A stretch of 64,000 nucleotides of DNA. Source: an uncultured Gammaproteobacteria bacterium. GTDB lineage: Bacteria > Patescibacteriota > Microgenomatia > Levybacterales > GWA1-39-11. Under the pieces are notes generated by a model. The model made no database searches. It was not told the origin of the DNA and saw only the letters and a list, made by a program, of their open reading frames with translations. Positions 24,873 through 52,383 of the stretch are shown in pieces. The stretch is taken from contig CAZIAP010000001.1 in the NCBI GenBank assembly GCA_964537315.1, positions 23,975-87,974 of the forward strand, in the 5' to 3' direction. Both the position numbers and the translations under genes were made by a program. Each line of letters opens with the position of its first letter. The first letter of the stretch is position 1.

Positions 24873-25328
24873 TTATATGCGTTGGAGTTCAATAACTGCA
24901 CCTTGACTGGTTTTCGTATTAACTAACAAATAAAAGGTATATTCAGTAAGTGTAGCTGTTGCTCTAGATTTTGGTTGAACTGTCACTTCTTGATAATCTT
25001 TTGAGCCTCTTTTTCCAAATCTTAAGCTTGCGGGACTATTTGTTTCATTTATGATTAATAATTTTCCGCTGGGTGTCTCATCTGAGGAAAAAACTATTAG
25101 CTCAAGTGGTTCTAATCCTGCATCATTTAGCAATATATATCCTACGTACGAGTCTGCGTCTTCTGAAGTATCATTTGTATTTTGAGTAATGGAATCTCCT
25201 TCTATGGCTGCTTGATCTGAACCTTTTGTTAAGTAATAGGTACCTACTATGATTAGTACACATATTAGTAAAACTGAAATAATGATGTAAATTTTTTTCA
25301 TAAGCTTAAGTTTACGGAGCAACTTCAT
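24873..25328 (-). CDS. Small N-terminally anchored extracellular protein (partner of the upstream giant protein)
   Basis: N-terminal TM 'IYIIISVLLICVLIIVGTYYL' plus a ~120-aa beta-rich domain; overlaps the upstream giant gene by 17 nt. Confidence 0.4.
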   Translation of the reverse strand: MKLLRKLKLMKKIYIIISVLLICVLIIVGTYYLTKGSDQAAIEGDSITQNTNDTSEDADSYVGYILLNDAGLEPLELIVFSSDETPSGKLLIINETNSPASLRFGKRGSKDYQEVTVQPKSRATATLTEYTFYLLVNTKTSQGAVIELQRI

Positions 25329-27762
25329 TCCACATGCTGTTTGATACTTTGTAAAAGTCTGTAAGTGCAGTAATAAAGCTTAGTCTAGATTTTACGAATA
25401 GCGATGGATTTGTAGCATCTGCCGTACATAATGTTCTGTCATTGATTAGTCTGCCACCAGCGCTCTCTACTCCGAATGGATTATCAGCATTTGCAACCAG
25501 TGTTCCTTCAATATTTAATCTCCTGTCAGCTGTAGCGGGGCAGTTTGCGATACTCGGTATTAGTATATCGTTTTCTGCCGTTATAATTGCTTGAAGGTTT
25601 GGGTTTGTGCTTGATGGATTAACCTCACCTACATTAGTTCCAATGGTGACATCGCCTTTGGCTGCGAAAATCAGTAGGGACTTGCCAGTTGCTACCCTTA
25701 CATCGCTGTTTATCGTGATATTTCCTTTAGCCAAGATGATAATTTTATGATCATTATTTATCGAGCGGTTCGCAGGGCCAGATGGGTTAAATGTTAGATC
25801 ACCATCTACATAATAGAAAGTTTGGTTATTCAAGCTACTGAGGCTTGCAATAAAAGTACAGTTACCACTGGGTGAACAGCCAGGCAATGGAGTTAAGTTT
25901 ACAGCCGCGCTCTGTTCTTGACGTTTTTTATAGAAACTGTATGATGCGTTTCCTTCTCGGTTTGAAGCACCTACTTGATCGTATTCATTGTCTACCCTCC
26001 AAATGTCTGAAGCGGATCCAAATAGCGAACTTCCTGTGGTGCTATAAAATACTGAGGCTGTACCACTATTAATGGAAGTTGTAGGACGCTCTCCTGCGGG
26101 TACTCGGTTTTGTATAGTTTGCTGTCTTACACTGCCTATTTCAGTCTGGAACCAGGGTTGTGTAGTCTTAAGGATGATGGTGATGTCATCAGGAGGATTT
26201 GATATATCAAATGGTCCATAAGTTGGGTTTGATAAGTCTACCTGTGTTTGTACTCCATTTTGCGTAATTATCGCACACTGAACTACCCTGCTTCCTATGT
26301 TTGATAAGGTAAGATGATACTCATTGCCTGCAGGACCTGTGACTGAGATCGAGTATCTGCCATTTGCGCCTGTAGGGTTTGATGGCCAGTTATCTGTGTT
26401 TCTAAACACTGATGCGACTGCACCCGGAACCCCGACTAAACCTGTTAAGTTACACTCGCCTGTGGGACTATCTCCTATAGTCCCTGTTACCGTATTAGTA
26501 ATATCCGTGTTACCTGGCGCATTTAGGATAAGCGGATGGTTGTATGTTCTATTTCCAGTAACGGATATTTCCGGTGAATAGGTATCAGAAGTGTAGGTTG
26601 TTGGAATTTCTGCATATCTGATTCTATATCTTCCGGTTGTTAAATTACTGAATATTCGTCTACCATTATTAATTCCTGAAGTTGCTGTATACCCGTTAGT
26701 GACCGCAGTCCAGTTGCTTCCAGATCTCCTTTCCAGGTAGACTCGGGTACGGGGACCCGGATCTTCTGCTGAATCAAACTGTCCATTACCATTGAAATCA
26801 ACAATAAGTATTCCCAGAATACTAATGTCATCTTGAGTTTGCCATTCTCCGTCTCCATCACGGTCTACAAATACCCCAGCGTTTAATGTATGAGTTGAAG
26901 GTGCTGTTGTCGGTGTGTTTACTCTTCGAGTAGGTGTAGGTGTATTAGGGACTCTACAGCGCATTAAACCTCCTCCAGGAGGAGGAAGACATCTGCTACA
27001 ACCGTCAGCAGCATTCGCGCATTGTGAATCGAACGAGCAGGTAGCATTGCATCTATTTACTGAACCGGGTGCACTTGTAGGAGTGCGTGTTGGAAGAGTA
27101 CCGCCTCCACCACCGCCACCACCACAGTCCGTAGGACAAGAAGTTGGAGTTTCTCCTGCTCCTGTTTCACATGCTCCATTTCCACAAACTGCTCCTCCAC
27201 CAGAACCTGTTCTACATGTACCATTTTGACAAGTCATGGTCCCACAGCATTGTGTATTGCTTGTACAACTACCACCCGATGATCTGCAGCACTGATTACT
27301 AACGCAGCTTAGTTGCTGTCCACTACAGCACGGCGCTGCTCCTGCACCACTCGGAGTGTTACACGATTGTCCAACATTTCTACAGGATTCTCCCCCTCCT
27401 CCGCTACCAGATCCTTCACATCTATTAGTACTGAGATTACAGGTTAGATTACTACAGCAGTTTCCGATACCTGCACCACAAGACTGCCCAGTTGACCTGC
27501 AAGAAGTATCAGGCGTCGGGGTAGCGTTACTTCTCGGGACGCAGCATATATTATTAGCCTGAAGATTTGGACAGAGCTCATTATTTCCACCTTGTTGTGT
27601 TTGATAACCTGCAGGACAAGGTGATGACGTCGTACAGTATCCTCCTCTTTGTGAACAAGTCTGCGCTGATACACTTTTAAAAATTCCGCTATCGGTGCCG
27701 ATAATCAAAAACAGCAGAAAAATGATTATCTGCCCCGTCAAAAAGTATATAAATTTTTTCAT
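25312..27762 (-). CDS. Giant secreted Cys-rich surface (adhesin-like) protein, paralog 1
   Basis: Signal peptide; ~230 aa with tandem knottin-like spacings (e.g. 'SCRSTGQSCGAGIGNCCSNLTCNLSTNRC'), 'GGGGGGGG' run, PT-rich linkers, SdrD/Cna-B-like 'GVFVDRDGDGEWQ' module, ~400-aa C-terminal domain shared with 28754..31255. Confidence 0.6.
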   Translation of the reverse strand: MKKFIYFLTGQIIIFLLFLIIGTDSGIFKSVSAQTCSQRGGYCTTSSPCPAGYQTQQGGNNELCPNLQANNICCVPRSNATPTPDTSCRSTGQSCGAGIGNCCSNLTCNLSTNRCEGSGSGGGGESCRNVGQSCNTPSGAGAAPCCSGQQLSCVSNQCCRSSGGSCTSNTQCCGTMTCQNGTCRTGSGGGAVCGNGACETGAGETPTSCPTDCGGGGGGGGTLPTRTPTSAPGSVNRCNATCSFDSQCANAADGCSRCLPPPGGGLMRCRVPNTPTPTRRVNTPTTAPSTHTLNAGVFVDRDGDGEWQTQDDISILGILIVDFNGNGQFDSAEDPGPRTRVYLERRSGSNWTAVTNGYTATSGINNGRRIFSNLTTGRYRIRYAEIPTTYTSDTYSPEISVTGNRTYNHPLILNAPGNTDITNTVTGTIGDSPTGECNLTGLVGVPGAVASVFRNTDNWPSNPTGANGRYSISVTGPAGNEYHLTLSNIGSRVVQCAIITQNGVQTQVDLSNPTYGPFDISNPPDDITIILKTTQPWFQTEIGSVRQQTIQNRVPAGERPTTSINSGTASVFYSTTGSSLFGSASDIWRVDNEYDQVGASNREGNASYSFYKKRQEQSAAVNLTPLPGCSPSGNCTFIASLSSLNNQTFYYVDGDLTFNPSGPANRSINNDHKIIILAKGNITINSDVRVATGKSLLIFAAKGDVTIGTNVGEVNPSSTNPNLQAIITAENDILIPSIANCPATADRRLNIEGTLVANADNPFGVESAGGRLINDRTLCTADATNPSLFVKSRLSFITALTDFYKVSNSMWNEVAP

Positions 27763-28753: not shown

Positions 28754-31255
28754 TTATGGTTCAACCTCATTCCAAATGCTTGTTGATACTTTATAAAAGT
28801 CAGTGAGTGAAGTAATAAAGCTTAGTCTAGATTTTACATATAGTGATGGATTGTCTGAGTCTGCTGAGCACAAAGTCCTATTATTTATCAATTTACCACC
28901 TGAACTTTCTACGCCGAATGGATTGTCTGAGTTGGCGACCAGGGTTCCTTCAATATTTAGCCTGCGGTCAGGATTTGCCGGACAGTCTGCGGTTCCTTGA
29001 ATCGTAATATTATCTTCGGCGGTTATAATGGCCTGAATATTAGGTGCGGAACTTTCCGGGTTAAGTTGTCCTACGTCGTTACCAATAATCACGTTATTTT
29101 TTGCAGCAAGTATCAGTAGTGATTTTCCATCACGTACGCGCGCATCACGGTTGATAGTAAGAGTTCCGTTTACAAGGATTACTACTCTTGCGTTAGAATC
29201 AAGCAATGGATCGCTAGGATTAAAGATTAGATCTCCATCTACATGATACAGTACTTGGTGATCAAGTTCGCTTAAAGGACGACTAAAAGTGCATCTTCCT
29301 GATGTAGGACAATGTGGAAGGTTGACCAACTGAGGACCTGTCTGCTGGGAACGTTTAATATAAAAGCTGTATGAAGCATTTCCTTCTCGATTATTGGAAC
29401 CTGTCTGATCATACTCATTATCAACTTTCCAGAGATTTGATGCAGTTCCGAGCATTGATCTGCCCTGCGTACTATAAAACACAGAGGCAGTTCTCCCTGA
29501 CGTTGAGGTAGGGCTTTTGCCTTCTGGTACTTTATTATTAATTCTTTGCTGCTTAACGCTGCCTATATCTGTCATAAACCAAGGCTGTCCAATACTTAGA
29601 ACGAAAGTAACCTCTGTATCATCAGGGAAATTTATAGAGTGTGAAGGACTGGTAGTGTCGATCTGTGTGCCATTTCCAAGAATAATACACTGAACTTGTA
29701 AATTACCGAAATTAGAGATATTTATAAAGTGAGAGTTGTTTGGATCGTCTGTTACTGTGATTGAGTAATTCCCGTTTGTGTCAGTAGCATCTGTCCAGGT
29801 TTGAACTGGTGATTCAGTATTGTTAATTGACACTAATACATTAGCCAGAGGTGTTGCCCCTGTTAGGCTACATATTCCATACTGGTTGCTTACAACATTT
29901 CCTCCAACATTTGAGGATATGTCATTTTCTGAGTTTGTGTCGACGGTAAGAGGTAAATAACGAGAGTAATTATTTGAAATTTGTACTGGAGGATAAGCAT
30001 ATGAAGTCGGACTGTAGGTTGACGGTATTTCTGAAAACTCAAGGCTGTATGTGCCTGTGGCAATTCCGTTAAAATTTATTTTACCGTTTGCCGCAGTGTA
30101 CCCATTTCCGACTTGAGTCCCGTTATTACGTCTGAGAATTACACGGGTACGAGGACCGGATTCTTCAGCCAGATCGTACTGTCCATTACCATTATAGTCG
30201 ACCAGTAATACCCCTCCAAGTATTAAGTCATTTTGTTCCTGCCAGATACCATTCATATCACGATCTACAAATACTCCCGCTGTTACTGTATGAGATCCGG
30301 TAGGAGGCGTTATTGGGGTTGGGGTAGATGTTGGATTCGACTGTCTATTAAGTGGAAAATATATCTGCGTAATGTAAGATCCGTTGTTTTGTATTTGTGG
30401 TATGTTAACCGTTTTAGGATTACTGGAAAGGTCTACATAGCCGGGAGGACTTAAACGCGATATGTTATATGATCCGTGAGTAGGTACATCTTGTCTAAAG
30501 AATCCTGCAGAGTTAGTCACTATTGTTACTCCATAAGAGTTTGGTCCAGTGATCCTAATCTGAGCTCCCTGTATACGCTCGTCTGGAGCGCTCAGCGTGG
30601 TATCACCATCTTCATCTACAAACACATACCCGGTTATAGTGTAGGTTTGTATTGGTGGTTGTGCTGAAGTTGGTGTTGGTGAATTTGTTGGTACTACTGG
30701 TGGAGTTGTTGGTGTAGGTGTATTTGGTCTGGCTGTGGGTGTTCTGGTTGGAGTTCGGGTAGGTGTAGGGGTTGCTGGACGACGTATTCCAAAATCTCTA
30801 GTATCAACATCTATGAAACCAGTTCCCCCTGTAGTTTCTACTGAATAAGAAGTAGCCGTAGTTGCTACATAGCCAGATGGCACAGAGATTGAAACGTTCC
30901 TTGTTCCACCTGTAAGTCCTTCAAAGCTATAATATCCTTTGCTATCAGTAGTTTTGGTACCTTTTCCTGTTAAAGATATTGTGACACTTGAAACCCCTTG
31001 CTCACCGGAATCCCAAGTTCCATTACTATTTGAATCAATAAATACCGTTCCTCTTATCACACTACTAGTTGAATTGGCGCATTTGTTATTCGAACAATTA
31101 GCATGGCAGCATTCTTGATCAGAGCTACAGGTTTGATTTAGCCATTTACATACTTGAGCATTAACGTTCGATGTTAGGTTAAAAAATGACAAACCCGCTA
31201 CTATAATAGTGAATAAAACTATTTGACGAGCTACAAATTGTAGAGCTTTTCTCAT
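28754..31255 (-). CDS. Giant secreted surface (adhesin-like) protein, paralog 2
   Basis: Signal peptide; one knottin-spaced module 'CKWLNQTCSSDQECCHANCSNNKC' (C-x6-C-x5-CC-x3-C-x4-C); three SdrD-B/Cna-B-like modules ('GTVFIDSNSNGTWDSGEQ', 'GYVFVDEDGDTT', 'GVFVDRDMNGIWQ'); PT linkers; C-terminal ~400 aa near-identical to paralog 1. Confidence 0.6.
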   Translation of the reverse strand: MRKALQFVARQIVLFTIIVAGLSFFNLTSNVNAQVCKWLNQTCSSDQECCHANCSNNKCANSTSSVIRGTVFIDSNSNGTWDSGEQGVSSVTISLTGKGTKTTDSKGYYSFEGLTGGTRNVSISVPSGYVATTATSYSVETTGGTGFIDVDTRDFGIRRPATPTPTRTPTRTPTARPNTPTPTTPPVVPTNSPTPTSAQPPIQTYTITGYVFVDEDGDTTLSAPDERIQGAQIRITGPNSYGVTIVTNSAGFFRQDVPTHGSYNISRLSPPGYVDLSSNPKTVNIPQIQNNGSYITQIYFPLNRQSNPTSTPTPITPPTGSHTVTAGVFVDRDMNGIWQEQNDLILGGVLLVDYNGNGQYDLAEESGPRTRVILRRNNGTQVGNGYTAANGKINFNGIATGTYSLEFSEIPSTYSPTSYAYPPVQISNNYSRYLPLTVDTNSENDISSNVGGNVVSNQYGICSLTGATPLANVLVSINNTESPVQTWTDATDTNGNYSITVTDDPNNSHFINISNFGNLQVQCIILGNGTQIDTTSPSHSINFPDDTEVTFVLSIGQPWFMTDIGSVKQQRINNKVPEGKSPTSTSGRTASVFYSTQGRSMLGTASNLWKVDNEYDQTGSNNREGNASYSFYIKRSQQTGPQLVNLPHCPTSGRCTFSRPLSELDHQVLYHVDGDLIFNPSDPLLDSNARVVILVNGTLTINRDARVRDGKSLLILAAKNNVIIGNDVGQLNPESSAPNIQAIITAEDNITIQGTADCPANPDRRLNIEGTLVANSDNPFGVESSGGKLINNRTLCSADSDNPSLYVKSRLSFITSLTDFYKVSTSIWNEVEP

Positions 31256-48335: not shown

Positions 48336-48911
48336 TTATAGTCCAAGATCTCTGTGGATAGATTGCATGGATGCAAGCGTTATTTGAATATATTGTTCAA
48401 GCGGTATATCAATTTTTTCCTCGCAAAGTTCAATCACCTTTCTGTCTACTCTGCGAGAAAAAGCTGTTTGTCCGAATCTCTTATATACAAATTCTGCAGT
48501 TAGCGAATTAAGTTTTTTGTCAGGGTGAATGAGTGCGCACGCAACAATAAGTCCTGTGAGACCATCAACTGTGGTGATTGCCCAGTCCATATCACTTTTG
48601 GGCTGTACTTTTGTGCTTTGAAAATTATGCGATTTGATTGCGTAAGCAATATCTCGGGGAATTATCTCTGGCTCGAGATCAAAAATCAACAGTCCGTGAC
48701 GGTCTAGGGCATTTTTTTCCTGAGCAATTTCATAGTCTATATCATGAAGCAAGCCAGTTATACCCCAAGTTTCTCTATCATGATCTGTACCATCTGGATA
48801 TAGATGATCAAAAATTCCTTTCATACTTGCCTCAGTTGCGAGACAGTGCTTTAGGAGATTTTTGTTATGAAGATACTTTGTTAGAAGTTTATATGCATCT
48901 GTTCGATTCAT
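48336..48911 (-). CDS. HD-domain phosphohydrolase
   Basis: 'HCLATEASMKGIFDHL...GLLHDIDYE' H...HD motif. Confidence 0.65.
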   Translation of the reverse strand: MNRTDAYKLLTKYLHNKNLLKHCLATEASMKGIFDHLYPDGTDHDRETWGITGLLHDIDYEIAQEKNALDRHGLLIFDLEPEIIPRDIAYAIKSHNFQSTKVQPKSDMDWAITTVDGLTGLIVACALIHPDKKLNSLTAEFVYKRFGQTAFSRRVDRKVIELCEEKIDIPLEQYIQITLASMQSIHRDLGL

Positions 48912-48915
48912 AGCG

Positions 48916-48975
48916 TGTGGAGTTAACTGGATTCGAACCAGTGACCTGTCCGATGAACATCGGACCGCTCTAACC
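48916..48975 (-). pseudogene. tRNA-like 3' fragment (D-arm to 3' end) lacking a 5' half; abnormal 8-nt anticodon loop
   Basis: - strand 'GGTTAGAGCG GTCCG ATGTTCAT CGGAC AGGTC ACTGG TTCGAAT CCAGT TAACTCC A': good T-arm and acceptor 3' strand, but the upstream sequence cannot form an acceptor or D stem; the GIY-YIG stop codon lies inside it. Confidence 0.35.
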
Positions 48976-49233
48976 TTTTGTTTTAATTACTCCGTCTGAA
49001 ATTATTTGTTCAATAACTTTTCTACTTTTGAATTTCTTTAGTTTCGTTTCTATTAATCTGGCTTCTTGTACTGTTTGATATTCTTTCTTAAATACTAAAA
49101 TAAATGGAGCTGTCAGTTTGGTATATTTTGATTTTCCAGAGTTATGTTCTTGCAGTCTTCTTTCTATATTTTCAGTAGAGCCAATGTAATATCTGTTATT
49201 TTTTATAGACTTAAGAATATATACAAAAAACAT
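48970..49233 (-). CDS. Standalone GIY-YIG (URI) nuclease-domain protein, YhbQ/COG2827-like
   Basis: 'FFVYILKSIKNNRYYIGSTENIERRLQEHNSGKSKYTK' GIY..YIG..R..EHN motifs; 87 aa; starts 5 nt after tRNA-Val. Confidence 0.7.
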   Translation of the reverse strand: MFFVYILKSIKNNRYYIGSTENIERRLQEHNSGKSKYTKLTAPFILVFKKEYQTVQEARLIETKLKKFKSRKVIEQIISDGVIKTKG

Positions 49234-49237
49234 ACTG

Positions 49238-49309
49238 TGGACGACATTGGGATTGAACCAATGACCTCTTCGATGTCAACGAAGCGCTCTACCACTGAGC
49301 TAGTCGTCC
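49238..49309 (-). tRNA. tRNA-Val (anticodon GAC)
   Basis: - strand 'GGACGAC TA GCTC AGTGGTA GAGC G CTTCG TTGACAT CGAAG AGGTC ATTGG TTCAATC CCAAT GTCGTCC A' folds as a cloverleaf with a 7-bp acceptor stem. Confidence 0.85.
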
Positions 49310-49443
49310 ATATAATTTTGACCTTTCCTATAAACATCGGACCACTCTACTACTGATCTATATACGCAAATAAGCCTCACAATTATACAAAACTATGTAT
49401 GGAATCTCAATTGAAGGTAACTTATGCTTTTACTTCATAAGCA

Positions 49444-49499
49444 TAAAAAAATCCCGACAAAGCGGGATTAAAGTGAAGGGGGTGCAGATACAGCACCCC
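49444..49499 (-). terminator. Tandem hairpins forming a - strand intrinsic terminator
   Basis: - strand 'gggggtgctgtatctgcaccccc...aatcccgctttgtcgggattttttt'. Confidence 0.45.
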
Positions 49500-49605
49500 C
49501 ATTCGGTAAAAGAAATCAGGTGGTCAAAGTGTGACCTTTTCCTCGCCATTGAGGAATTGGTCAGACAACTTTGCCTGATTACTTTTGTGGCACTAGCTTC
49601 GGTCA

Positions 49606-49640
49606 GCGAAACCTGGTCGGTTTCGCTTTTTCTTTTCTTC
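49606..49640 (+). terminator. + strand intrinsic-terminator-like hairpin
   Basis: 'gcgaaacc tggtc ggtttcgc tttttcttttctt'. Confidence 0.4.
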
Positions 49641-50443
49641 AGGATGAAAACCCCATGGAAGAGGTTTATTTTTTGGTTCCATTTTGGTTTCAGTGTGGGT
49701 CTGGATGCAGTCTCTATCTCCCCATTCAGGGTGATAGCGAGTTTCTTCTTCTTCCTCATCTAGAGGAAAGAATCGACCTTTAAACGGAAGGGACATTTCG
49801 ATCTCCTTTCTGCTTTTTGTAAGCCTAAAAACGATGCATAGGTCCGTAACGGACCAGCGCTGCTTTGTGAGCAGCTGCAACTTCTTCCAAATCCCTTGAG
49901 GATGGAGGAAGAGGTCTGCAAGCCTGACATAGCAGTATGCTGAGCGAAGTTTCTATGTCCTCATCGGATTCTGATTGAACGAACACAGCTCGATCTGCCG
50001 TTTCTCCCCAATTTCTCTTGGAAAGAGCAGAATAAACAACTACGCTGTTGGCAGGAAGTTCATCCTCTTTGTTGAGGATCTTCTCCTTGAACTGAGCTTG
50101 GAATTGCTCGTGTAGGACATCTCTGACCTTCATCGAAAGCCAGTCAAGCCTTATGAAGCAAATCGTCGGAAGATCGCTCTTGTCCACTTCTAGATTCCTT
50201 TCAGGAATGTAAAAAACTCCCCTTCGCGGTTTGGTAAATCACGACCTCATGGAATTTCTTCTCCTTTCGTTAATCAAATGCAAGTGCCACGGTGTCTTGA
50301 GTTAACTAAGTCGTATTTACGCCGTTTGTAAAATTGACCAGGTATTCAAGACGATTTTAATGTGCTACTACCCTTCTACTATACTTCCTTCGTTTCTGTT
50401 CCCTTCGACTATGCTCAGGGTAGTTTTTCTGTATTCAGAAAAA

Positions 50444-50470
50444 CAAAAAAAACCTCCCATGTGGGAGGTA
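50444..50470 (-). terminator. Intrinsic terminator (copy 1 of an identical hairpin)
   Basis: - strand 'tacctcccacatgggaggtttttttt'. Confidence 0.55.
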
Positions 50471-50706
50471 GTTCGTATATTTTAGGGCTATATGTCTCCT
50501 CCCACAATTAAATCGCCTCATTAAAGAGGACGACCATAATAATTGGGAAGAGTTGCTTGTGCATACTAACTTTATTGTAAATCCATAGTCTGTAATTGTC
50601 AACATTTAGTTTAATATTGGTGCAGGAGAGTCTACCTCCTGCACCAAGAAAGACAAGGTTCATGCCACTGATGGTGTTCGCCGATGAACATAGTGACAAT
50701 TTAACC

Positions 50707-51207
50707 TTATGTAGCAGATGGGAAGTTGACGGAAAAGGGTGATTTTCTTTTTATTGTATATCCCGGACATTCACGAAGTGCTTCTTTTAACCGATTTCGG
50801 TAGATTCTGAGCGGATCTAAGTGTGTTTTTCTTACACTTATTGGATTACCGCAAGGAAGAATCTCACCTTGGGTTTTATAAACATTGTCAAGGCGCTTAC
50901 CGATACTTAATATCTCTTTTGATCTCAGCACTTCATCTCTGTTTACGATTATAAGAAGCGGTGTTTTGACCCAACTTGGGAATAGTTCGGTTGGAATAGT
51001 ATGAGGAGCGTCCCATATTTTCCACGGTCCAAATCTGTAATACGCATCAGACTCCGCGCTTATTATGACTGAGTCATACTTTCGACTTACTTCTCCGCGT
51101 TCAGGAAAGATAATCCTGGTGTTGTACTGCGAACCAAGAAGCTCCAGCATCCCCATGACTTTTGGATCATTGTTGGGGATCAGAATTACAGGATTTGAAC
51201 TATTCAT
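50707..51207 (-). CDS. Hypothetical protein
   Basis: 166-aa ORF, GC slightly elevated, no known motifs. Confidence 0.3.
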   Translation of the reverse strand: MNSSNPVILIPNNDPKVMGMLELLGSQYNTRIIFPERGEVSRKYDSVIISAESDAYYRFGPWKIWDAPHTIPTELFPSWVKTPLLIIVNRDEVLRSKEILSIGKRLDNVYKTQGEILPCGNPISVRKTHLDPLRIYRNRLKEALRECPGYTIKRKSPFSVNFPSAT

Positions 51208-51222
51208 GTCTCACACGTCTTT

Positions 51223-51504
51223 CTAGGGAATGTAGACAAGCTCAGGGAACAAAATATTGTTTCGACTAGCCTCCTCAATTGCTAAAAGGTGGCATACTTG
51301 GCAAGTATTACTACCTTTGATTACTACCTTTGAACATCGTGGACATATGGTAACAGTGCACCCGCATCCTTCACATCTTGTAACAATCTTGTGATCATCT
51401 GGATGCTTACATACCTTTGCCGATTCCTTCATCCTTGCTTCCTTTCTGCTATCTCTCAGATTGAGAGAAACAGCCTTGAACATTTCAAGACTCTTACCTC
51501 TCAA
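51223..51504 (-). CDS. Small Cys-rich double zinc-ribbon protein
   Basis: 'VCKH...TRCEGCGC...ICPRCSKV...TCQVCH': four Cys pairs. Confidence 0.4.
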   Translation of the reverse strand: MRGKSLEMFKAVSLNLRDSRKEARMKESAKVCKHPDDHKIVTRCEGCGCTVTICPRCSKVVIKGSNTCQVCHLLAIEEASRNNILFPELVYIP

Positions 51505-51527
51505 CCTGTATGTAAATGTGCAACTAA

Positions 51528-51555
51528 AACAAAAAAACCTCCCATGTGGGAGGTA
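51528..51555 (-). terminator. Intrinsic terminator (copy 2 of the identical hairpin)
   Basis: Same 'aaaaaaacctcccatgtgggaggta' as copy 1. Confidence 0.55.
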
Positions 51556-51714
51556 TAGATATATATTTTTTTGATTATTAATTTTTATATTTTACTATTC
51601 CACCCACGCATGTATTTTTCCACCAACGTGGAGAATATTTGCGCGTGAAGGAATATGTGTAATTCATGGTTTATTCATTCTAGCTAACATGAATTTATCT
51701 GTCAAGAAAGGTAA

Positions 51715-52383
51715 TTATCCTGTTTGAGTTGCAACGTTTCGTTCAGAAGAAAGGCTAAATGACGTACCTTTTTTGGATACTTGGCTCCAGTACTGTTGCT
51801 GACCTTTTTTACTTGCAAAAAGTGCCAACCAGTTTTTACCCTCCTCAACTCTGATTCGTGCATTTCTCACAGTCAAAAGTACCCATTCAAGAAAGTTTAC
51901 CTGATAACGACTTGCTTCACTCGAATTACTTTCAACCGTAACCTGTTGTGAGACTTGCTTAAAAGCCATTTCCATCTCTTTTGATGCTTTAATTAATTTT
52001 TTAATCTCGCTTTGAAGTACTTCAATCTGTTGCTTATTTTCAACTTCTTCTTTTTTAGGCACCTCTGCGTGGTCAAGTGATCTTACGTACTCTCTATGCT
52101 CTGCTGTTACTGCAGGCTTTTTTTCTGATTTTTCCGGAATCAAAGAAAACTCCTGCCCTTCTTGCAGTACTGCTTCTTTTTGAATACTTGTACCAGATTC
52201 TGATTTCGTACTTAAAAGCTGTTCAGGGAGGGTTTGTTTAGCAGAAGATTTAAAAAAGTCTTCCCACATGGTTCGAAGCGCATCTTTGGAAAGCGAAGAT
52301 ACCTGTTTGCCCATCTCTCCTCCACTCGTTTCTATAGAGTCTTGGAAGAAAGTGTGTTTTTTTTGTTTTGTTTGATTTGCCAT
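51715..52383 (-). CDS. Hypothetical coiled-coil protein
   Basis: 222-aa ORF downstream of tig. Confidence 0.3.
   Translation of the reverse strand: MANQTKQKKHTFFQDSIETSGGEMGKQVSSLSKDALRTMWEDFFKSSAKQTLPEQLLSTKSESGTSIQKEAVLQEGQEFSLIPEKSEKKPAVTAEHREYVRSLDHAEVPKKEEVENKQQIEVLQSEIKKLIKASKEMEMAFKQVSQQVTVESNSSEASRYQVNFLEWVLLTVRNARIRVEEGKNWLALFASKKGQQQYWSQVSKKGTSFSLSSERNVATQTG

Follow-up and report, generated by a model that had tools for sequence, protein, structure and literature searches.

A conserved minus-strand locus of two orphan small-protein genes and structured RNA elements in a Levybacteria-related genome

Two small genes in a GC-rich segment

The window analysed here, a stretch of DNA 64,000 nucleotides in length, carries on its minus strand two small genes, ORF1 and ORF2, together with a promoter, a leader and several RNA elements (Table 1). 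The locus lies between a DUF5660 gene and tRNA-Val/HD, and occupies the identical position in three further genomes of the Levybacteria-related clade (candidate phyla radiation, CPR), L082, L139 and L140, where the gene order is TF - DUF5660 - leader - ORF1 (with or without ORF2) - 3' element - ... - tRNA-Val - HD - DUF5665 - ThrRS. Because it holds the same syntenic place in these three genomes, the locus is, on the sequence evidence, inherited and not a recent insert; its synteny in related genomes we count among the established points, as gene order in the assemblies indicates. Housekeeping genes are 70-80% identical across the four genomes. Same-species contigs (L081, L153-L155) are 100% identical to the window. 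The nearest species-representative genome in a ThrRS-anchored genome scan is only 56% identical and useless for comparison at the DNA level, and all 22 Patescibacteria loci of that scan are without the 3' element.

Table 1. Positions of genes, promoters and RNA elements at the locus
Feature	Position	Strand	Basis
Sigma-70-type promoter of leader/operon, TTGACA-17-TACAAT	50574..50602	-	11/12 consensus match
Leader RNA, candidate attenuator or small RNA	50440..50568	-	RNAalifold, model R2
Leader long hairpin, outer stem CUUCCC/GGGAGG	50552-50496	-	part of leader, followed by A-rich linker
Leader intrinsic terminator	50469-50445	-	after A-rich linker; terminator-like site 50469-50452
Three-tier 5'UTR hairpin, apical loop AAACGGC	50294..50352	-	same fold in four genomes
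P0 5' strand GUGGCACU, proposed long-range helix	50283..50290	-	pairs with 49594-49587
Shine-Dalgarno block AACGAAAGGAG and mini-ORF AUG AGG UCG UGA (MRS*)	50239..50271	-	conserved block
ORF1, 120 aa, GTG start, fast-evolving orphan protein	49825..50187	-	positional orthologues, frame-specific similarity
ORF2, 67 aa, RBS AAAGGAG, ATG start, orphan small protein	49593..49796	-	homologue P0003, third-position bias
P0 3' strand AGUGCCAC (proposed), overlapping ORF2 stop codon	49587..49594	-	complementarity
3' element, ~120 nt	49586-49468	-	covarying stems, kept in four genomes
3' element domain 1, compound hairpin: P1 AAUCAGG/CCUGAUU, P2 UGACC/GGUCA, P3 CCUC-AAUNNN-GAGG	49508..49586	-	L082 similarity, model R1
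3' element core, CUGACC...CCUCAAUNNNGAGG...GGUCAC		-	
3' element domain 2, P4 GC hairpin GGGGGUGC/GCACCCCC, GAA/UUC closure, U-rich tail	49475..49504	-	terminator-like site
Second intrinsic terminator, AAUCCCG...CGGGAUU and U7	49445..49469	-	terminator-like site
tRNA-Val cluster promoter, TTGAGA-17-TATAAT	49382..49410	-	11/12 consensus match

A previous sequence-only reading had singled out 49395-50440 as a GC-elevated, hairpin-dense segment. The GC rise is real (0.437, compared with a mean of 0.384 for the window; sd 0.023 in same-size windows; 97.6th percentile), with a maximum of 0.47-0.48 at 49700-50150; its size, put at 45-50% against ~35%, was overstated. The k-mer composition is atypical (tetranucleotide divergence at the 97th percentile), and the MFE of the locus is the lowest among 29 same-size windows. 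Every hairpin that had been named is present: GGGGGTGC/GCACCCCC at 49478-49500, the minus-strand AATCCCG/CGGGATT and its T run at 49450-49469, GCGAAACC/GGTTTCGC at 49606-49626 with its T run on the plus strand, and GGTCCG/CGGACC at ~49843-49857. The impression of many terminator-like structures also holds (9 in 48500-52000 against 2.8 +/- 1.7 in shuffles), and GC hairpins followed by a U tract occur on the minus strand at 50469-50452, 49500-49478 and 49469-49450. Dense folding is borne out in one part of the segment and not in another: it is exceptional at the low-coordinate end only (z = -6.6 on both strands at 49425-49645; -8.3 on the plus and -6.2 on the minus strand at 49450-49599), the body of ORF1 is moderately structured (z = -3.0), and 50150-50440 folds in an ordinary manner. 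The promoter of the tRNA-Val cluster is part of the neighbouring unit, yet falls inside the low-coordinate end of 49395-50440; a GTATAAT -10 box upstream of tRNA-Val is kept in L082, L137 and L139.

The three overlapping minus-strand ORFs described earlier are indeed there (50187-49825, 49880-49593 and 49759-49430). The accompanying claim that the segment has no clean ORF or stable frame does not stand, as two of the three are genuine, conserved genes; the apparent frame switching is an ordinary by-product of stop-poor, GC-rich sequence. The third ORF has non-coding codon statistics, as does a plus-strand ORF of 122 aa. A single frameshifted gene is ruled out by the non-coding score of the third ORF and by the two-gene layout that the orthologues share. 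Protein-coding sequence makes up ~55% of 49395-50440.

ORF1 has positional orthologues in L082, L139 and L140, with BLASTP giving E=7e-13 between those of L082 and L139. The window's copy has diverged furthest (E=0.1 against L082) and shares no detectable DNA similarity with that of L082; the Smith-Waterman score between the two proteins (z=7.4) appears in the in-frame comparison only. Across orthologue comparisons frame-specific similarity amounts to z=7.4-16.7, with differences most frequent at the third codon position, then the first, then the second. The codon score of the window's ORF1 is borderline (0.07-0.13), and the NCBI assembly calls it a CDS (P0126). ORF2, likewise called a CDS there, has a codon LLR of 0.26, similar to that of the window's genes, and a homologue of 78 aa, P0003 (E=4.6e-8). 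Its C-terminus, LPWGFHPEEKKKRNRPGFADR, is conserved: the last 22 codons hold 10 synonymous and 2 non-synonymous changes, and 12 of the 15 differences within the last 23 codons are at the third position. ORF2 is missing from L139 and L140; ORF1 and the RNA elements remain there. Both ORFs are intact and under protein-level purifying selection, with in-frame similarity and synonymous or third-position substitutions, and they are real, conserved genes, each separately initiated.

Neither protein has a match in Pfam, PHROGs, NCBIfam, PADLOC or PDB sequences, and ORF1, compared with sets of 5.8 billion and 1.84 billion proteins, retrieves only itself and one weak repetitive match judged meaningless, with no homologue outside its own clade among the 1.84 billion representatives. 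The AlphaFold models are uninformative (pLDDT 42.7 for ORF1; pTM 0.11 and no secondary structure for ORF2). Judged from their sequences, both proteins are hydrophilic and neither is hydrophobic.

In all four genomes ORF1 has a GC of 0.45-0.52 and a GC3 of 0.40-0.59 (0.46 in the window), against 0.19-0.37 in neighbouring genes. Since ORF1 is rich in GC3 in every one of them, the rise in GC is a property of the gene itself. Folding z-scores of the ORF1 mRNA are -3.0 (window), -7.5, -1.4 and -2.5, control genes ranging from -1.1 to +2.0.

Conserved RNA elements

As the aligned sequences indicate, the RNA structures at the locus are conserved and covarying, with compensatory changes in the 3' element, the leader and the 5'UTR hairpin, based on 4-5 sequences in model-fitted alignments. 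The idea of a structured non-coding RNA survives to the extent that such conserved elements are present; a stand-alone structural RNA does not. A scan at gathering threshold with all 4227 Rfam families, including the RNase P RNA, tmRNA, 6S and SRP RNA proposed previously, passes only tRNAs in the window, and the same is true of L082, L139, L140, L147 and L156; at E<=10 over 48700-50800 there are sub-threshold chance matches only. ARAGORN finds 7 tRNAs and no tmRNA in the window.

The 3' element has 99% of cells paired and 9 pairs changed on both sides, which none of 500 shuffles equals, slid controls being ~50% paired; these counts are small and come from four distinct genomes in two sub-clades, in a model-fitted alignment. 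Changes on both sides affect 5 pairs in P1 and, between clades, 4 in P4, P2 and P3 being invariant; L139 and L140 have an extra hairpin inserted in the P4 loop. The covariance model R1 of the element, which matches in the four genomes only, places P2 off by one column; it served detection and alignment only, and P2 was excluded from the pair counts. The G-U pairs of P1 and P4 would be A-C mismatches if read on the plus strand, which points to the minus strand. Domain 1 is 81% identical to L082, and DNA identity over the 3' element and leader is 81-84%. P4 is the probable first terminator, its U tract being imperfect (UUCACUUUAA); a terminator comparable to the second one stands farther downstream in L082. 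The element may have a stability or regulatory role.

At the other end, the promoter keeps TTGACA and TAnnAT with 17-18 nt spacing in L082, L139, L140 and L147, and the spacer varies. The leader lies just beyond 49395-50440. RNAalifold on its five orthologues yields 29 pairs, 12 of them with compensatory changes, and model R2 scores 103-135 bits in these five. Read from the aligned orthologues, the 3' strand of the hairpin, GUGGGAGG, is complementary to CUUCCC... and also to CCUCCCAC of the terminator, and would offer a candidate alternative pairing. Because GGGAGG could find its partner inside the hairpin or, alternatively, in the 5' half of the terminator, the leader is probably an attenuator, or a small RNA of ~125 nt if it is always terminated.

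Several leader-related observations extend beyond the locus. Diverged leader-like copies stand ahead of unrelated genes in the window (51526-51671) and in L140 (1644-1769); the L147 orthologue of the leader has an unrelated ORF of 154 aa behind it. Two units of promoter, ~120 nt and identical terminator occur in the window, their sequence likeness being in promoter and terminator only.

The architecture of the 5'UTR hairpin is common to all four genomes: its outer stem has two compensatory pairs and its inner stems covary, the apical stem reading UUUAC/GUAAA, UUUGC/GCAAA, UUUAU/AUAAA and CCCAC/GUGAG in the four sequences. The Shine-Dalgarno block is identical in L082, with MRV* as the mini-ORF, and L139 has a version with a mini-ORF of 14 codons. 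That the block and mini-ORF have a function is something we only infer.

Two long-range pairings are predicted. The first, helix P0, has homologous complementary blocks in L082 (AAGCACUAGU/ACUAGUGCUU) and L139 (GUGGCACU/AGUGUCAC), and a restricted complementarity test gives p=0.004 (window), 0.0008 (L082) and 0.008 (L139); with its 8-10 bp it is not significant if the whole 5'UTR is scanned, and it is without support in L140. The base-pair probability of 0.98 in the full-length fold carries no weight, high values being common in control windows too, and RNAduplex across the entire UTRs was set aside as meaningless, as it allows unrestricted loops. The second is a duplex between the 5' end of ORF1 and the ribosome-binding site (RBS) of ORF2, at -31.7 kcal/mol against -15.2 +/- 3.4 in shuffled sequences (0/1000 shuffles); the L082 duplex is not significant (255/1000 shuffles). 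In the window genome the first ~14 codons of ORF1 are predicted to pair with this RBS and mask it. Sequestration of the ORF2 RBS by the start of ORF1 would therefore imply translational coupling of the two genes.

An operon model and its alternatives

What kind of transcript could such a locus produce? We consider it probable that the segment forms the main part of a minus-strand operon, peculiar to this lineage and vertically inherited, that yields an attenuator-controlled, heavily structured small-protein mRNA. Transcription would start at the conserved sigma-70-type promoter (50602-50574), and RNA polymerase would then cross the leader hairpin and terminator (50568-50440), where attenuation may occur. 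The read-through RNA would comprise the three-tier 5'UTR hairpin, the strong Shine-Dalgarno sequence with its 3-codon mini-ORF, ORF1 (120 aa) and ORF2 (67 aa), and would end in the conserved 3' element of ~120 nt, in which a compound hairpin with an invariant core is followed by the covarying GC terminator hairpin, with the second terminator behind it. From the complementarity we infer that the short P0 helix probably holds the mRNA closed by joining its 5'UTR to the stop-codon region. The high GC, GC3 and hairpin density would then be the outcome of selection for stable folding of the mRNA rather than of foreign origin.

Another possibility is that the ~1.1-kb transcript is mainly a structured regulatory (dual-function) RNA in which the ORFs are secondary, or that the 3' element (domain 1 and P4, ~120 nt) is freed as a trans-acting small RNA derived from the 3'UTR. 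We regard this as rather unlikely, with observations on its side. The non-coding ends are more conserved at the DNA level than ORF1; the GC3 excess and negative folding z-scores of ORF1 recur in all four genomes; the invariance of the P2/P3 core and loops hints at a surface for specific recognition; and the 3' element is retained without ORF2 in L139 and L140. However, ORF1 and ORF2 are under selection as proteins, no separate small-RNA promoter or processing signal was found, and no target complementarity was identified. In a bolder form, which seems distinctly unlikely, the whole unit would be a clade-specific dual-function RNA that selection keeps GC-rich and globally folded, with paired ends. 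Its invariant 3' hairpin core and its leader would serve as riboregulators or as docking sites for proteins, and the RNA would either encode the small proteins alongside, as RNAIII does hld, or, like hok mRNA, keep them untranslated by folding back. ORF1 GC3 reaches 0.59 in genomes of 35-38% GC.

A selfish module of two genes is improbable, be it toxin-antitoxin-like (of type II, ORF1/ORF2, or of a hok-like type I with the toxin silenced by a fold-back mRNA) or of another kind. Such a module would fit a tandem pair of small, fast-evolving orphan genes on a compact, highly structured mRNA; the predicted combination of 5'-3' pairing and RBS masking in a compact mRNA resembles the fbi/tac fold-back and the mok-hok coupling of hok mRNA. 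Yet neither ORF nor any orthologue has a toxin, antitoxin or defence domain in PADLOC or Pfam, L139 and L140 lack ORF2 and keep ORF1 and the RNA elements, and neither protein has the hydrophobicity of a type I toxin. The locus stays at one chromosomal site in four genomes and is not mobile, and no antisense promoter was noted and no antisense gene identified.

The sequence-only reading had also raised a degraded or foreign insert, which would here be an island or prophage remnant beside tRNA-Val with spurious, frame-shifted ORFs. Apart from the unusual composition, such an origin could draw on the adjoining tRNA-Val locus, which is rearranged and carries a GIY-YIG insertion, and on the confinement of ORF1 to its own clade. 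The tRNA-derived repeats at this junction bracket the GIY-YIG/tRNA-Val unit (48916-49372), not 49395-50440. Synteny largely refutes recent or decaying foreign DNA, and we hold it to be very improbable: the locus sits at the identical place in four genomes, its GC excess is common to all orthologues, its ORFs are intact and under purifying selection, none of the ORFs is an integrase, and att repeats do not flank the segment. In agreement, blastn against phages and plasmids gave no match, viral contigs scanned with ORF1, ORF2 and a domain-1 pattern held no relatives, and JGI metagenomes scanned with the ORF2 peptide and a P4 hairpin pattern gave chance matches only. Finally, a housekeeping structural RNA gene too divergent to be recognised by eye, which a GC-rich, hairpin-dense stretch in an AT-rich genome might suggest, is hardly credible, being refuted by the Rfam and ARAGORN results and by the mostly protein-coding content of a span whose conserved RNA parts are separate modules of ~60-130 nt found in a narrow clade only.

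Relation to known systems and significance

The operon that we propose shares with attenuation leaders and riboswitch platforms of the trp, pyr and T-box type a promoter, structured leader and terminator directly upstream of genes, and a strand, here GGGAGG, that could pair with either of two partners. Unlike them, its leader has no conserved leader peptide, aptamer-like unpaired core or Rfam match, and leader-like copies also precede unrelated genes; it could instead be a free-standing small RNA. A second parallel lies in fold-back mRNAs of the hok/sok type and in the long-range 'Min Jou' interaction of MS2: the mRNA is compact, GC-rich and highly folded, and 5'-3' pairing and coupled translation, through masking of a downstream RBS by upstream coding sequence, are predicted here. 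The proteins at this locus, however, are neither small hydrophobic toxins nor phage proteins, no antisense RNA gene is seen, and the predicted long-range helices span few base pairs and are not conserved throughout. 3'UTR-derived small RNAs and 3' stabiliser hairpins are similar in that the 3'UTR is more conserved than the coding region and consists of a hairpin and the terminator of the mRNA itself; the invariant P2/P3 core sets the 3' element apart from a plain terminator. The likeness to RNase P RNA, tmRNA, 6S RNA and SRP RNA lies in raised GC and dense helices within an AT-rich genome, whereas the locus has no covariance-model match, is mostly coding and contains short, clade-restricted modules.

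The earlier misreading was a plausible one: in the AT-rich genomes of CPR bacteria, high GC and dense hairpins with no evident frame do not by themselves mark a stretch as structural RNA or as foreign DNA. What the locus adds is unannotated and confined to the Levybacteria-related clade, namely two orphan small-protein families and three conserved RNA motifs absent from Rfam (the leader hairpin-terminator, the 5'UTR hairpin and the 3' compound hairpin). The fast-evolving ORF1 also keeps a conserved GC3 excess. With a narrow distribution and two orphan proteins, the value of these findings is moderate. CPR bacteria have not been cultured, and next to nothing is known of how they regulate their genes; conserved attenuator-like leaders and structured UTRs therefore offer a way in.

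Two small genes in the GC-rich segment

The segment 49395-50440 had been described as lacking a clean ORF. This proves wrong: codon scores, synonymous bias, frame-specific similarity and orthologues together indicate that it holds two real genes, ORF1 and ORF2 (see table), and the three overlapping minus-strand ORFs of the sequence-only reading lie exactly where it placed them. The codon model, for which 33 long ORFs from the window served as training set, gives 0.30 +/- 0.07 per codon for genes and -0.05 +/- 0.19 for spurious in-gene ORFs. ORF2 has a single homologue in 5.8 billion proteins, P0003 (78 aa, E=4.6e-8); across the last 22 codons of the pair, 10 changes are synonymous and 2 non-synonymous, and of the 15 nucleotide differences in the last 23 codons, 12 fall at the third position.

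Relatives' loci came from contigs with a gene for P0003 or for a close homologue of the HD protein, which yielded three further genomes: L082 (Logan), whose housekeeping genes share 70-80% DNA identity with the window, L139, the Candidatus Levybacteria MAG GCA_035445865.1, and L140 (JGI). ORF1 has no database homologue, yet positional orthologues are present. Those of L082 and L139 match by BLASTP (E=7e-13), and the window and L082 give a Smith-Waterman z of 7.4 (0/300 shuffles as good), the similarity being confined to in-frame comparison with differences ranked pos3>pos1>pos2. The GTG start at 50187 is supported by the N-terminal match DLPT/DLST. Neither ORF matches Pfam, PHROGs, NCBIfam, PADLOC or PDB sequences, and their AlphaFold models are uninformative. 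The NCBI assembly of the source genome calls both as CDS. Automatic gene callers disagree here: another Logan contig also has both called, and in the Logan assemblies of two samples (L153/L154) neither is called but the spurious plus-strand 122-aa ORF is.

The reported rise in GC and structure is real, if somewhat overstated. GC stands at 43.7% vs 38.4% for the whole 64-kb window (97.6th percentile; same-size windows sd 2.3%), with a peak of 47-48% at 49700-50150, and k-mer composition is indeed atypical (tetranucleotide divergence at the 97th percentile). All the named hairpins are found, terminator-like sites are over-represented (9 vs 2.8 +/- 1.7 in shuffles), and the MFE of the locus is the lowest among 29 equal-length windows. 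Extraordinary folding is confined to the low-coordinate end (sliding z = -8.3 and -6.2 on the two strands at 49450-49599; -6.6 on each strand at 49425-49645), whereas 50150-50440 folds ordinarily. The ORF1 mRNA of the four genomes gives z = -3.0, -7.5, -1.4 and -2.5 vs shuffles, with control genes ranging from -1.1 to +2.0.

Features of the locus and its surroundings (window coordinates unless a contig is named)
Feature	Position	Strand	Particulars
ORF1, 120/102 aa	50187/50133-49825	minus	codon score 0.07-0.13
ORF2, 67 aa	49796-49593	minus	RBS AAAGGAG; codon score 0.26
109-aa ORF		minus	codon score about -0.2
122-aa ORF	49395-49763	plus	codon score about -0.2
Leader	50568-50440
5'UTR hairpin	50352-50294
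Proposed P0, window			GUGGCACU/AGUGCCAC
Proposed P0, L082			AAGCACUAGU/ACUAGUGCUU
Proposed P0, L139			GUGGCACU/AGUGUCAC
3' element	49586-49468
P1	3' element		AAUCAGG/CCUGAUU
P2	3' element		UGACC/GGUCA; invariant
P3	3' element		CCUC-AAUNNN-GAGG; invariant
P4	3' element		CCGAAUGGGG, then P4 (GC hairpin), then U-rich tail
UCCUAACGGGAG unit	L082 3341-3460; L139 4668-4763; L156 190-290
Diverged leader-type unit	51526-51671	minus
Diverged leader-type units	L140 1644-1769; L139 9640-9773
1085-bp block	50446-51555		25-nt direct repeat at 50446-50470 and 51531-51555
93-aa ORF of block	51223-51504		Cys-rich (zinc-ribbon-like)
166-aa ORF of block	50707-51207		orphan
Rearranged tRNA-Val locus	48916-49390	minus
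tRNA-Val(GAC)	49237-49309		functional
Degenerate tRNA-Val piece	49312-49372		5' part
Degenerate tRNA-Val piece	48916-48992		3' part; Rfam tRNA 22.8 bits, under 29-bit threshold
GIY-YIG-only ORF	48970-49233		87 aa
Large ORFs	25312-27762; 28754-31255	minus	816 and 833 aa; GC up to 0.50

RNA modules flanking the genes

In the leader, just outside the segment, an A-rich linker joins a long hairpin to a terminator; the leader follows a promoter (TTGACA-17-TACAAT) that is kept in five genomes. Compensatory change affects 12 of its 29 pairs. Its covariance model, R2, scores orthologues at 103-135 bits and diverged copies, one of them in the window, at 29-39 bits. A conserved GGGAGG strand has alternative partners, its own hairpin or the CCUCCC strand of the terminator, and this dual pairing appears attenuator-like.

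Downstream lies the 5'UTR hairpin, whose three-tier fold recurs across the four genomes; its stems covary and its loop is of the AAACGGC type. After it come a conserved SD and a mini-ORF, which reads MRS* in the window and MRV* in L082 and has 14 codons in L139. We propose a long-range helix, P0, in which the nucleotides directly after this hairpin would pair with the stop-codon region. A restricted test gives p=0.004 (window), 0.0008 (L082) and 0.008 (L139); tested against the whole UTR the pairing is not significant, in L140 it is unsupported, and its high predicted pair probabilities recur in control windows. In the window, the first ~14 ORF1 codons also form a predicted duplex with the ORF1-stop/ORF2-RBS region (-31.7 kcal/mol vs -15.2 +/- 3.4 in shuffles, 0/1000 as good); the L082 counterpart is not significant.

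The 3' element is 81% identical to that of L082, where ORF1 has no DNA similarity. Its covariance model, R1, matches the four genomes only (141, 138, 48 and 47 bits). In stems P1, P3 and P4, 99% of cells are paired and 9 pairs have changed on both sides, compared with 0/500 shuffles as good and about 50% pairing in slid controls; these counts leave out P2 and come from four sequences in a model-fitted alignment. The G-U pairs of the element favour the minus strand.

Neighbouring elements

The diverged leader-type units (promoter, hairpin, A-rich linker, ACCUCCC/GGGAGGU terminator; R2 35-39 bits) have unrelated genes downstream, which hints at a small leader or sRNA family within the clade. The 1085-bp block of the window is bounded by an identical direct repeat, the terminator hairpin itself, and is missing from L082, L139, L140 and L147; it therefore represents an insertion or duplication particular to the source genome.

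In the relatives, a further short conserved unit (containing UCCUAACGGGAG and a terminator) stands between the 3' element and tRNA-Val, with a 54-61-aa ORF after it. Unit and ORF have both been lost from the window, where the second terminator directly adjoins the 3' element. The window's tRNA-Val lies between two degenerate pieces that carry a 31-nt direct repeat (87% identical), and the stop codon of the intervening GIY-YIG ORF falls within the remnant's D loop. L082, L139 and L156 have one intact tRNA-Val without GIY-YIG; the GIY-YIG/remnant junction of the window recurs in L136. The arrangement resembles the insertion of a GIY-YIG cassette, with tRNA-Val duplicated or replaced in the process. 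Elsewhere in the window, the other composition outliers are two large ORFs with SdrD B-like/prealbumin-fold repeats, probable surface proteins.

Nature and origin of the locus

The evidence best supports an attenuator-preceded operon encoding small proteins. Its mRNA would be under selection for high GC and strong folding and has conserved modules in its 5' and 3' parts; its ORFs are probably translationally coupled. Given two coding ORFs, we consider a dual-function or 3'UTR-derived regulatory RNA rather unlikely. The adjacent small ORFs might recall a toxin-antitoxin-like module; with ORF2 present only in the window and L082 among the four genomes, and with the PADLOC search negative, this is improbable.

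A foreign or degraded insert, proposed for the atypical composition, is more doubtful still. In all four genomes the order is trigger factor, DUF5660, leader, ORF1, (ORF2), 3' element and, further on, tRNA-Val(GAC), HD, DUF5665 and ThrRS. This shared synteny shows that the locus is inherited rather than inserted. Neither ORF1 nor the 3' element occurs in the more distant L141 and L147, of which L147 keeps the leader. Phage, plasmid, JGI-metagenome and viral collections hold nothing similar. In each of the four genomes ORF1 is rich in GC (GC 0.45-0.52 and GC3 0.40-0.59, vs 0.19-0.37 for DUF5660, HD and ThrRS), so the GC rise is a long-standing feature that the gene has maintained. A housekeeping structural RNA (RNase P RNA, tmRNA, 6S or SRP type), to which the dense helices had pointed, can practically be dismissed: Rfam 15 returns only tRNAs in the window at gathering score and in the relatives' loci, and no credible match at E<=10 over 48700-50800, ARAGORN finds no tmRNA in the window, and most of the segment is protein-coding.

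The proteins and RNA motifs of this locus are unannotated, stand outside every curated family and are seen in only four genomes, but they are of familiar kinds: orphan small proteins, a leader/terminator and structured UTRs. The one real puzzle is the conserved GC3 excess in the fast-evolving ORF1.
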